In this document: piece by piece, positions 26,919-29,096 of the stretch | Layout of the letters: every line of letters starts with the position of its first letter | Position numbering within the stretch: the first letter of the stretch is position 1 | IMG/VR virus record: IMGVR_UViG_2671180411_000016 | Source: a virus | Taxonomy: Duplodnaviria > Heunggongvirae > Uroviricota > Caudoviricetes | Reading direction: 5' to 3' (one strand) | DNA: 40,851 nucleotides | The notes under the pieces: generated by a model | Seen by the model: only the letters and a program-made list of their open reading frames with translations | Told to the model about the DNA's origin: nothing | The model's database searches: none | Position numbers and translations under genes: made by a program

Positions 26919-27920
26919 TTAGTAATCTGCGTGTTTCGCACTTTTCAGAAATGCTTTCATATTTTCATTAGGTCGCTCAATTTCGAAGTTACTTCCATAT
27001 AACTCTTGTAATTTTGGCCATAACTTACTTAATAACCCTCTCCTGCGATAAAATGGATGTATCCAAACGGTAGATAGGTACGGAGAATTTGCATTTGAAT
27101 TGTTTATTGTGACCAGCCCAACTAAACATTGTCGATAACCACTATTATCCATTGATTGTATTTCTTCGACGAATGGATACGCGATTACATCAGTCCAACC
27201 ATGATCGGTTGTATCCCATTGCATTCCGTCATGACATTCCTTCGACTGATAGCGGCGTAAAGCTACACACGCGAGCTTTTGCCAATCTGGAGAATTAATT
27301 GTGATCTCTTCATCGTATGACGCGCCTATTGGAGCGGGTATTGGTCTGATTAATCCAGCATGGCATTCATCATAGAACTTCATGTTTCCCTCAGAAACGT
27401 TGTGTACGTTGGGTTGCTCCATGTGTGCGCCATTCAAAAATAGCTCTGATAGTAGTGTATCTACACTGTAATCTTTATTGATTATTGTCGGCTTAGAGTT
27501 TTTCTTATTAAGGCCGCGAGTAACGATTTTTTGATCAATGTTAACAACATGGAATAATCCGTCGGGGAGGCTAGCGAACCACGATGGGGCATCGGACCAG
27601 AATAGCATGCCTTTTGTACTTCTTAAGAGTTTAATTAAGTTAATACAAGCTTCTTCACTAGTCTTGCCGTTGATGCGAAGTATGTTAGGACTAAAGTAAT
27701 ATTCATCCATATCAGGGAATGCAGCTTCGCAAAACTCCTGTACATAATTTAGCACCTGGATTCTACAGAGATCATCATAGCTGGTAATAACTAAGGGGGT
27801 ATCTTCATTACTATTATGATTATCAATAATGCAATCTATAGCGAGACTTACTGCTTTGCGTATCACTTCAGTTGAATCTAACGACTCTAAAAATTTTGTC
27901 TTTCGTGTGCGAATATCCAT
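26919..27920 (-). CDS. hypothetical protein with GNAT-like C-terminal domain (gene 2 of the two-gene accessory operon)
   Basis: 333 aa; C-terminal ...CLVGLVTINN...YLSTVWIHPFYRRRGLLSKLW resembles the GNAT acyl-CoA-binding motif (R-x-x-G-x-G/A type); start 15 nt after the upstream gene stop; AT-rich. Confidence 0.6.
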   Translation of the reverse strand: MDIRTRKTKFLESLDSTEVIRKAVSLAIDCIIDNHNSNEDTPLVITSYDDLCRIQVLNYVQEFCEAAFPDMDEYYFSPNILRINGKTSEEACINLIKLLRSTKGMLFWSDAPSWFASLPDGLFHVVNIDQKIVTRGLNKKNSKPTIINKDYSVDTLLSELFLNGAHMEQPNVHNVSEGNMKFYDECHAGLIRPIPAPIGASYDEEITINSPDWQKLACVALRRYQSKECHDGMQWDTTDHGWTDVIAYPFVEEIQSMDNSGYRQCLVGLVTINNSNANSPYLSTVWIHPFYRRRGLLSKLWPKLQELYGSNFEIERPNENMKAFLKSAKHADY

Positions 27921-27935
27921 GTATGACCTGCGCTA

Positions 27936-28958
27936 TTAAAATTCATGAATGAACGGTTTGTCATCTGGTTGCAAAATGGTGGTTTTATTCGTTGCTACAT
28001 TTAAACTGTTGTAGAGCATAATTGCCAGGTTCGATGCATTTTCAATCAGCGTTTCAAGATCCTGGTCTGTAATCACTACGAGGTTCCCTTCTTTATCCTT
28101 TCCACCACGATGCACTAAGTGATTTCGATTGAGGGTTGCCAATTCAATAGCTTCTATCGGACAGTCTTTTTGTACTTTTATATCGAATGTAGCTTCATAG
28201 CGGTCGATTACCTTTTTAGTGCTATGCCAGCTTGCACTGATCAAGTGTTCCTTGATTGACCTGATTAGCTCTCCCCTAATTTTCTCGATGGGTTCACCCT
28301 TGAAAGGCAACGCAGCAATATCTTTGCTTACTTTAAATTCAGTCTTACCTTTTTCTATACAATTGGCTATGTAGACATCATCTTTCTCTATAGAATTAAT
28401 GAATAGCTCAACATAAAGCGTTTCCAAAGCTGTAATAACATTCGTGTAGAGCAAACTAAGCAAGTGGTTTTTTTGCTGTTGTTCAGTTTTATCTTTTGCA
28501 AGTTTTTTTATTTTATCGATATTATCAATGAATTTTAAATACGGATTACCGGAAGACGTTACAGCGTCGTAGATATCATCATCGTACCAATCATCTATAT
28601 TATTTGAGTTTCCAGACCAGTCAAAACATTGTGTTTGTAATTCATCTACTAATTCCTCAATATACTCAGATTTAACATATTGACCGAAGATGGATTGTAG
28701 TTCTTCGCTCGCATCATACGGCCCGCCATATATGTAAGCATAGCCACCTTCTCTACTTTCATACGGACAAGCATTTGCCGGATCTTCAAAGTTTTCAAAG
28801 AACCAGTTTTTCATTACTTCGAGTTGATCTTTTTTGCTTATGTATTTTAAAGATTTTAGTGGAACTTTCTTTCCATTAACCTCGAAAACAATTTTCACGA
28901 TGTAACGCTCCCTTGTATCAATTGCGCAACTATTATACCACAGCGAAATACAGGGCAT
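27936..28958 (-). CDS. hypothetical protein with C-terminal HEPN-like domain (RNxxxH motif RNHLVH) (gene 1 of the two-gene accessory operon)
   Basis: ORF 27936..29027; start at ATG 28958 preceded by AAGGAGG (6 nt spacer); alpha-helical C-terminal half with ATLNRNHLVHRGG; acidic Trp/Tyr-rich N-terminal region; AT-rich. Confidence 0.6.
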   Translation of the reverse strand: MPCISLWYNSCAIDTRERYIVKIVFEVNGKKVPLKSLKYISKKDQLEVMKNWFFENFEDPANACPYESREGGYAYIYGGPYDASEELQSIFGQYVKSEYIEELVDELQTQCFDWSGNSNNIDDWYDDDIYDAVTSSGNPYLKFIDNIDKIKKLAKDKTEQQQKNHLLSLLYTNVITALETLYVELFINSIEKDDVYIANCIEKGKTEFKVSKDIAALPFKGEPIEKIRGELIRSIKEHLISASWHSTKKVIDRYEATFDIKVQKDCPIEAIELATLNRNHLVHRGGKDKEGNLVVITDQDLETLIENASNLAIMLYNSLNVATNKTTILQPDDKPFIHEF

Positions 28959-29096
28959 AACCTGCCTCCTTAAACTAACATACCATGAGCCAGCAATGTC
29001 CGCTATTGGCACAAAGCGGACAACCACGCTAGCTCTCCCCTGTGCCAGAAAAATGTCAATTTACATATGAACTAATGCTCTTTGATCTAGTAACGT

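Follow-up and report, generated by a model that had tools for sequence, protein, structure and literature searches.

A repeat-bounded cassette in a Rac-family prophage of Escherichia coli carries a PF18870-HEPN gene and a GNAT-fold gene and is a candidate phage-defence cargo

Stand-alone proteins termed aRES, in which a PF18870 domain is combined with a RES domain, have been described recently, and three of them protect Escherichia coli against diverse phages via NAD+ depletion and growth arrest, for which the RES active site is required (Osterman et al., bioRxiv 10.64898/2026.01.28.702374, January 2026 preprint). HepS, a single-HEPN protein of the Gifsy-1 prophage, senses a phage protein and aborts infection by cutting tRNA (PMC13043305), and the defence proteins ApeA, PD-T4-2, PD-T4-5 and PD-T7-3 are listed under the family PF18735 (PMC10952713). 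Here, two adjacent genes were analysed in a 40,851-nt stretch of viral DNA (IMG/VR virus record IMGVR_UViG_2671180411_000016; its full length is referred to as the window); the DNA belongs to an E. coli lambdoid prophage of the Rac family that is inserted next to ttcA. Gene 1 encodes a PF18870 domain followed by a HEPN domain, gene 2 encodes a GNAT-fold protein, and both lie in a segment bounded by inverted repeats. With moderate confidence, we read this locus as a mobile two-gene cargo cassette in which gene 1 probably encodes a single-protein abortive-infection HEPN RNase and gene 2 a separable, autonomous acyltransferase rather than an obligate antitoxin.

Domain architecture and conservation of the two proteins

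An earlier sequence-only reading of this DNA had described two minus-strand open reading frames (ORFs) 15 nt apart, the first HEPN-like and the second GNAT-like. The layout was borne out, with gene 2 at 26919..27920 and gene 1 ending at 27936, and both domain calls hold in profile searches of the homologues and in structure models. The genes and their domains are as follows.

27936..28898, minus strand: gene 1, 320 aa, PF18870 N-terminal domain and RiboL-PSP-type HEPN domain (WP_014639476.1)
28608..28898, minus strand: gene 1 N-terminal alpha+beta domain, HEPN/RES N-terminal domain 1 (PF18870), residues ~1-97
27975..28481, minus strand: gene 1 HEPN domain, residues ~140-308, with the Rx4H motif R258-H263 at 28127..28110
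27921..27935, minus strand: 15-nt intergenic spacer, its length unchanged in every paired locus
26919..27920, minus strand: gene 2, 333 aa, orphan N-terminal domain and GNAT-fold C-terminal half (WP_000354966.1)
27351..27920, minus strand: gene 2 N-terminal domain, residues ~1-190, alpha/beta
26922..27341, minus strand: gene 2 GNAT-fold region, residues ~194-333, with motif A, R292-R-R-G295-L-L, at 27047..27030

Alignment of 69 gene 1 homologues (26-87% identity) showed that R258 and H263 of RNHLVH (residues 258-263), the segment that had been proposed as the HEPN RNase motif, are invariant, as are E159, W224, H225 and R264; in the N-terminal domain, the motif around G58-G59-P60 is invariant and E(D/N)P...GG(Y)..I.GGPY is conserved. 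PF18870 matched 63 of these homologues at E <= 0.01, some of them reaching the cut-off (P0116 and P0117 at 28.7 bits), and PF18735 (HEPN_RiboL-PSP) matched 36 of the 69 full-length homologues (best E 7e-11); the exact gene 1 sequence is named 'RiboL-PSP-HEPN domain-containing protein' in UniRef. The AlphaFold2 model of gene 1 (pLDDT 87.9) consists of a small alpha+beta N-terminal domain, which is predicted to be a sensor or regulatory module, and a C-terminal helical domain with the all-alpha HEPN fold, whose structural matches include Las1, sacsin and HepT, with HEPN-MNT toxins among the closest. In one metagenomic protein (P0117, 407 aa), a PF18870-like domain is fused C-terminally to a PIN_8 nuclease domain; PIN effectors are thus a further class of partner for PF18870, whose place in a protein can be N- or C-terminal, so that the domain behaves as a swappable partner for toxic effectors.

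The acyl-CoA-binding segment that had been proposed for gene 2 corresponds to WIHPFYRRRGLLSKLW at residues 286-301, in which R292 is invariant. Its motif A reads R292-x-x-G295-x-[L/M/I], with a conserved glycine and a hydrophobic last position in place of the G/A of Q/R-x-x-G-x-G/A. Against PF00583 (GNAT), the window protein scored 19.9 bits, relative to a threshold of 20.7, and 18 of 46 homologues matched. The gene 2 model is compact (pLDDT 90.3, pTM 0.84) and has the GNAT fold, and a Foldseek search of the PDB returned only GNAT-type acetyltransferases, the structural neighbours being mainly protein acetyltransferases (ATAT, HAT1, ESCO1, MYST and NatD). The N-terminal domain of about 190 aa, which the earlier reading could not place, found only its own family when residues 1-200 were searched with phmmer against 1.84 billion representative proteins (21 hits), and fold searches with the whole-protein model gave no PDB match attributable to it. 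Searches of both proteins against NCBIfam gave nothing useful, and searches against PDB sequences, with single sequences and with profiles, gave no match.

Both genes are annotated as 'hypothetical protein' and fall into PHROGs families of unknown function. Each is present in 209 of 5,426 complete E. coli genomes (~4%), nearly always at >=99% identity; carriers include APEC O1, S88 and the type strain ATCC 11775, and the genes also occur on IncF plasmids of Klebsiella and Citrobacter. The dN/dS ratios (0.12-0.21 for gene 1 and 0.20-0.43 for gene 2) indicated purifying selection on both genes, with gene 2 evolving faster than gene 1 in every pair. Judged by these ratios and by the dozens to hundreds of homologues found for each, neither gene is a chance ORF and both appear functional.

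Boundaries, neighbourhoods and expression signals of the cassette

Comparison of the DNA with other occurrences of the pair delimited the following elements.

26781..29022, minus strand: whole mobile cassette, 2,242 bp, running from the left repeat via the candidate promoter and gene 1, the spacer, gene 2 and its 3' tail to the right repeat
28957..29022, minus strand: left terminal inverted repeat, ~66 nt, from a repeat search and end alignment of three independent cassettes
26781..26846, plus strand: right terminal inverted repeat, ~66 nt, which repeats the left end in inverted orientation
3005..4075 in locus L183, ~3001..3057 in L182, 4906..4964 in L097 and 5906..5964 in L005: further repeat sites

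When the cassette was compared with its occurrences in at least 10 contexts unrelated to each other (lambdoid prophages, IncF plasmids and metagenomic islands), DNA homology broke at 29021/29022 and at 26781/26782, within a base or two. The left repeat opens with a 26-bp palindrome, TGTCCGCTTTGT-GC-CAATAGCGGACA (29022..28997), and 49 distinct occurrences align in register. The two repeats are imperfect, each opening with the 26-bp palindrome, followed by ATTGCT, and finishing in GGGAGCAGGTC, and some loci have a ~45-nt insertion at 26845/26846. The inverted repeats and the lack of a transposase are features of mobile insertion cassettes; no target-site duplication was visible in 10 cassette contexts, and no cognate transposase or recombinase was identified for the repeats. 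Copies of these repeats also enclose another cargo, of ~1 kb, on a plasmid of Pantoea agglomerans. By themselves, the left ~60 nt occur on ~28 plasmids and, in Dickeya and Yersinia, upstream of solo gene 1 homologues; right-end repeats were not found downstream of solo gene 1 homologues, and the Aeromonas-type pairs are without the repeats. In three metagenomic contexts (L148 ~3870..3900, L150 ~1500..1530 and L154 ~3155..3182), CGCTCATAGCGGAC, which resembles the outer half of the right end, lies 10-14 nt before the left end, which suggests insertion beside, or recombination with, a pre-existing similar site. As an RNA hairpin, the left-end palindrome is not unusually stable (z = -1.3), and an Rfam scan of the region returned only a sub-threshold sRNA match, with no match to the repeats. 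The repeat-bounded format, shared by at least one further cargo, may reflect a vehicle by which small cargo operons are carried between the mobile elements of Enterobacterales.

Outside lambdoid prophages, the cassette is found next to Gabija (GajA and GajB), a defence dGTPase, LeoBC, SIR2+cREC, RadC/CbeA and umuDC, and on IncF plasmids it lies beside RelB and PemIK. Genes directly beside distant relatives of gene 1 comprise, among others, integrases, transposases, SIR2, HerA, restriction-modification genes, AbiJ and AbiEii. The view that the pair belongs to no named system was supported by PADLOC v2, which gave only chance-level matches to gene 1 (E 0.01-0.03) and none to gene 2, and by literature searches, in which there was no description of this HEPN and GNAT pair and no paper citing WP_014639476.1 or WP_000354966.1. 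The candidate role in defence or abortive infection proposed from the sequence appears plausible from this context and from the aRES precedent.

Comparison across cassettes revised the expression signals of gene 1. Its proposed start at ATG 28958 (~340 aa) was rejected on comparative grounds, as the 20 additional codons do not exist in Aeromonas and are not in frame in Serratia grimesii; the most likely start is GTG 28898 (320 aa), on which RefSeq and most homologues agree, aligning from MK(I/V)VF. The AAGGAGG reported as a strong ribosome-binding site is present at 28971..28965, but it lies within the conserved ~66-nt left repeat and is not a conserved ribosome-binding site of gene 1. Likewise, the reported -35 hexamer TTGACA is present at 29059..29054, but it has no good -10 partner at 17 nt and was not returned by a promoter scan, and it was rejected as a promoter since it lies beyond the cassette boundary at 29022 and is so absent from every other cassette context. 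The start codon, ribosome-binding site and promoter first assigned to gene 1 are thus probably wrong, and two other elements were read from the sequence.

28932..28940, minus strand: candidate extended -10, TGGTATAAT, conserved in relatives
28908..28913, minus strand: Shine-Dalgarno-like AGGGAG, 9 nt upstream of GTG 28898 (counterpart AAGGAGA in Aeromonas)

The counterparts of the candidate extended -10 are TGGTACAAT in Serratia and Enterobacter and TGATACAAT in Aeromonas. The order TGGTATAAT (28940..28932), AGGGAG and GTG would make a better promoter candidate than TTGACA, and the consensus promoter scan, which needs a -35, did not return it.

Solo occurrence, pairing and alternative explanations

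A genome scan for the gene 1 family found members in at least 352 species-level genomes of many phyla, and the neighbourhoods of 80 loci were examined. Gene 2 is downstream of gene 1 in only 3 of these, the closest ones (98-100% identity), and clustering of all neighbours in the 80 loci gave no recurrent partner; gene 1 homologues are solo in 77 loci, including copies at 71-78% identity. Solo homologues at 71-74% identity occur in a small E. coli integrative island and in Dickeya, the latter next to ParE-HTH. In the E. coli loci L093-L096, a 71%-identical solo HEPN homologue (5001..5942 in L093) occupies the cargo end of a small element of the integrative kind, with an integrase, AlpA and a Rep/primase-like gene; the element resembles a phage satellite and would be a second, independent E. 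coli vehicle of the gene 1 family.

Distant relatives of gene 2 (33-62% identity) are solo in a Serratia integrative and conjugative element (ICE), in Marinomonas, Shewanella and Neptunicella (among ordinary genes in the last) and on metagenomic contigs, where all gene 2 loci at <=56% identity are without gene 1; in Motilimonas, a copy next to Mu-like phage genes lies at the end of its contig, with its upstream side not visible. Conflict genes in the neighbourhoods of solo gene 2 include HigB, Tse2/SUKH, T5orf172, AAA_13 and a weak Abi_2 match. In the last case (L084, 4038..4679), the gene with the match lies head-to-head with the Marinomonas epiphytica homologue (51% identity); Abi_2 is another HEPN-containing abortive-infection family, and this arrangement is possibly a second, independent case of a GNAT gene next to a HEPN gene, or a coincidence.

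By sequence comparison, pairing is confined to one Enterobacterales/Aeromonas clade. Nearly all gene 2 loci at >=73% identity with enough upstream DNA have gene 1 (84-100% identity) exactly 15 nt upstream, the exceptions being gene 1 deletion derivatives, and dS of the two genes tracks together up to 0.65, so the pair travelled as a unit; in a mobilisable element of Aeromonas caviae it lies beside SIR2+cREC.

The two genes have also been separated in nature. Genomes of Enterobacter, and several contigs from viruses or metagenomes, have by DNA homology an internal deletion of gene 1 (window positions 28921..27998) that keeps the leader and gene 2, and a second, independent deletion (about 28964..27978) is present in locus L120. 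Gene 1 is truncated in 4 of the 209 E. coli genomes, gene 2 being >=80% covered in every one of the 209, and insertion sequence (IS) elements lie in the gene 1 promoter region in two strains; these truncations and promoter insertions may be signs of a costly gene 1. In E. coli MB56 (L130, 1735..5097), two ISSen4 copies flank gene 1, one in the promoter region and one at the junction with gene 2, in a composite-transposon-like arrangement in which the N-terminus of gene 2 is altered. The reverse separation is seen in strain SF-173, where, in a different lambdoid prophage, gene 1 is identical and intact and IS1A interrupts gene 2. A chimeric ORF of 320 aa (P0147/P0148; E. coli, L124) joins the first 119 residues of YdaV (DnaC-like) to gene 2 residues 133-333; it was found on 9 contigs and evidently arose by a deletion that took away the 3' part of ydaV, all of DUF1627, DUF977 and gene 1, and gene 2 in its 5' part.

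The HEPN-plus-GNAT module of the sequence-only reading therefore stands as a tight operon with clade-limited pairing, but not as a two-component system of wide conservation, given that the gene 1 family is overwhelmingly solo, that distant gene 2 relatives are solo and that the genes have been separated in both directions. An obligate toxin-antitoxin relation is for this reason unlikely, although the natural separations argue against it not conclusively. In such a relation, the toxin would never be found intact without an intact antitoxin, whereas SF-173 and the solo gene 1 homologues at 71-78% identity present that very situation. The strict toxin-antitoxin reading was down-weighted on the grounds of the solo gene 1 family, the aRES proteins acting alone, SF-173 and the solo gene 2 lineages.

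For the cargo cassette with an autonomous gene 1, what we infer of the anti-phage function, trigger, RNA target and gene 2 substrate is the following. The PF18870 module would act as a sensor or autoinhibitor, and the gene 1 protein would be inactive in the lysogen. A cue from an infecting phage would free the HEPN active site (R258/H263), presumably assembled as a dimer, and cellular RNA (tRNA, mRNA or rRNA) would be cut, such that translation would halt and the cell would arrest before the phage cycle is completed. Gene 2, co-transcribed with gene 1, would be an autonomous acyl-CoA-dependent acyltransferase, probably acting on a protein, and is more likely a second independent activity, or a modulator of gene 1, than an obligate antitoxin.

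Several observations weigh against this interpretation. The gene 1 protein of the window scored 22.2 bits against PF18870 (E 1.9e-4), under the gathering threshold of 27.4, and had no match to PF18735 at E <= 1, so its domain membership rests on its homologues and its fold. In the gene 2 model, the chain ends after helix alpha4 and the usual C-terminal strands are missing, and catalytic competence is therefore uncertain. Given that PADLOC v2 gave no significant match, the defence reading rests on analogy and neighbourhood, and many immediate neighbours of distant gene 1 relatives are housekeeping genes. The 15-nt spacer and the joint travel of the genes in >25 loci (gene 2 identity 73-100%) fit a coupled pair; a gene 2 that is kept after gene 1 has gone follows the classic course of toxin-immunity decay, and a bias towards losing gene 1 would be expected if its product were toxic. 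In addition, SF-173 still encodes gene 2 residues 1-187, and an antitoxin role of the N-terminal domain is compatible with that strain.

The alternative that survives best, although we consider it unlikely, is a true two-component toxin-antitoxin or defence pair, in which the GNAT protein would check the HEPN RNase, either by acetylating it, as MNT AMPylates HepT, or by binding through the orphan N-terminal domain, and infection would break this control. The tight operon with a spacer that is invariant in every paired locus over dS up to 0.65, the two independent deletions that removed gene 1 and kept gene 2 and the promoter, the four truncations of gene 1 beside a retained gene 2 and the structural proximity of the HEPN domain to HEPN-MNT toxins are all consistent with such a pair. 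It is opposed by the 77 of 80 solo gene 1 loci, with copies as close as 71-78% identity among them, by the sibling aRES proteins that act alone, by the intact gene 1 and IS1-split gene 2 of SF-173, and by the occurrence of the gene 2 family alone in several lineages.

It is rather improbable that the genes are unrelated passengers of a shared vehicle, with gene 1 serving defence and gene 2 serving the mobile element or an unrelated fitness trait, for which AcrVA5-type GNATs provide a model of an anti-defence or host-modifying acetyltransferase. Gene 2 relatives without gene 1 in the transfer region of the Serratia ICE, beside Mu-like phage genes and in assorted islands would fit this explanation, as would the retention of gene 2 after deletion of gene 1, its faster evolution in every pair and its structural neighbours, which are mainly protein acetyltransferases (ATAT, HAT1, ESCO1, MYST and NatD). 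However, no evidence here points to a gene 2 substrate, long-lasting co-transcription across considerable divergence is not required by unrelated passengers, and the conflict genes near solo gene 2 (HigB, Tse2/SUKH, T5orf172, AAA_13 and the weak Abi_2 match) fit both defence and counter-defence.

A more elaborate possibility, to which we give the same low probability as to unrelated passengers, joins several claims: a two-layer immune module with the PF18870-HEPN abortive RNase under the tuning or licensing control of a protein acetyltransferase dedicated to it, the whole being moved by an undescribed recombination that uses the ~66-bp palindrome-headed inverted repeats and leaves no target duplication. 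The acetyltransferase would, in that joint claim, act on the RNase or on the prophage's own trigger, so that the prophage could still grow lytically. The least probable explanation, that the locus has nothing to do with phage and is a selfish stabilisation or addiction module, or that its HEPN protein processes prophage or host RNA for regulation, fits the presence of HEPN domains in RNA-processing and toxin-antitoxin contexts (structural matches Las1, sacsin and HepT) and the position next to the RelB and PemIK addiction modules on IncF plasmids, but is very unlikely in view of the aRES precedent with the same N-terminal module, the Gabija, dGTPase and SIR2 defence genes adjoining the cassette in independent contexts, and the repeated loss of gene 1, which argues against effective addiction.

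If gene 1 defends, PF18870 would be a general sensor or regulator that drives RES, HEPN and PIN effectors, and comparison of these three would be a direct route to what it senses. Gene 2 would be a clean test case for a GNAT enzyme in phage defence or counter-defence.

Prophage setting and comparison with described systems

The prophage in the window contains integrase, recET, ydaSTUV replication, lysis, terminase, capsid and tail genes, and the gene pair lies between the following features.

29097..29528: DUF977 gene, flanking the pair on one side
26299..26780: ~480 nt without annotated gene, from the right end of the cassette to the next gene, with two weak terminator-like hairpins at 26578..26524 (minus strand)
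25936..26298, strand opposite to the pair: DUF1971/TehB-like gene, flanking the pair on the other side

The DUF1367/DUF1364/DUF1133 late-regulation block lies past the DUF1971/TehB-like gene. In other E. coli lambdoid prophages, the slot downstream of DUF977 is filled by QueH, an alpha/beta hydrolase, unrelated hypothetical genes, or HNH with ParDE; the 'moron position' between the replication genes and the nin/Q region that had been claimed for the pair is therefore real, with variable cargo at the same site elsewhere. The AT-rich island described there was likewise confirmed, with a GC content of 38.5% for the cassette (computed over 26845..29022; 36.1% for gene 1 and 39.1% for gene 2) versus ~50% in the flanks on the replication and nin sides. 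Five runs of masked N of 232-253 nt each (13417..13666, 15568..15820, 20398..20646, 30032..30263 and 36881..37130) account for apparent dips of GC in the composition profile; one of them breaks the DUF1627 gene just upstream of the pair. A prophage of the same type (L092) carries the conflict and exclusion genes sieB (superinfection exclusion; 29516..30004), ralR (type I toxin; 34747..34896), kilR (30446..30667) and ydaT (YdaT-family toxin; 27756..28178), and the cassette thus adds to a set of such cargo genes in this prophage type.

As a vehicle, the cassette resembles mobile insertion cassettes and pdif-type modules, in which passenger genes without a transposase lie between inverted repeats in many contexts. 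Its passengers are also repeat-bounded and without transposase, and the repeats also bound other cargo in Pantoea; it differs in the absence of a visible target-site duplication and in long ~66-nt repeats headed by a 26-bp palindrome, which by eye are unlike XerC/D sites or integron attC cores.

The closest comparison for gene 2 is with GNAT-RHH toxin-antitoxin systems of the AtaT/TacT/KacT type, with which it shares a GNAT fold with an acyl-CoA-binding motif and a location on mobile elements. In contrast to these toxins, the gene 2 protein is double their size, includes an orphan N-terminal domain of 190 aa and is modelled without the C-terminal strands, and neither an ORF nor an annotation for a small RHH antitoxin was found beside it. 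In HepT/MntA (HEPN-MNT, type VII toxin-antitoxin), the partner of the HEPN protein is an MNT nucleotidyltransferase, whereas here it is a GNAT-fold protein, and no nucleotidyltransferase domain was found in gene 2 or the neighbours; furthermore, the effector gene comes first here, and the HEPN protein bears a large N-terminal domain and mostly occurs without a partner.

Among defence proteins, ApeA, PD-T4-2, PD-T4-5 and PD-T7-3 are, like gene 1, HEPN-type members of the same Pfam clan encoded by single or few genes, but none of their PADLOC models matched gene 1 at E <= 1 and their N-terminal architecture differs. HepS is prophage-encoded, as is gene 1, and is a lone HEPN protein that both senses and executes, with RNA (tRNA) cleavage and arrest as the outcome; RNA cleavage with arrest is also predicted for gene 1. 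The closest architecture is that of aRES, in which, as in gene 1, an N-terminal PF18870 domain precedes a toxic enzymatic domain in one polypeptide of ~300-600 aa, and which, like the gene 1 family, is typically stand-alone, resides in islands and on mobile elements and occurs in E. coli, Klebsiella and Enterobacter. The aRES proteins have no operonic partner, as is the case for most of the gene 1 family, whereas gene 1 of the window has gene 2 15 nt downstream. The aRES effector is a RES NAD+ phosphorylase that acts on NAD+, whereas that of gene 1 is a RiboL-PSP-type HEPN RNase with RNA as its predicted target; no RES domain match was found in gene 1, whose C-terminal domain is HEPN, and it is not an aRES member for that reason. 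From the shared PF18870 domain, the PIN fusions and HepS, gene 1 is best read as a putative effector-swapped relative of aRES.

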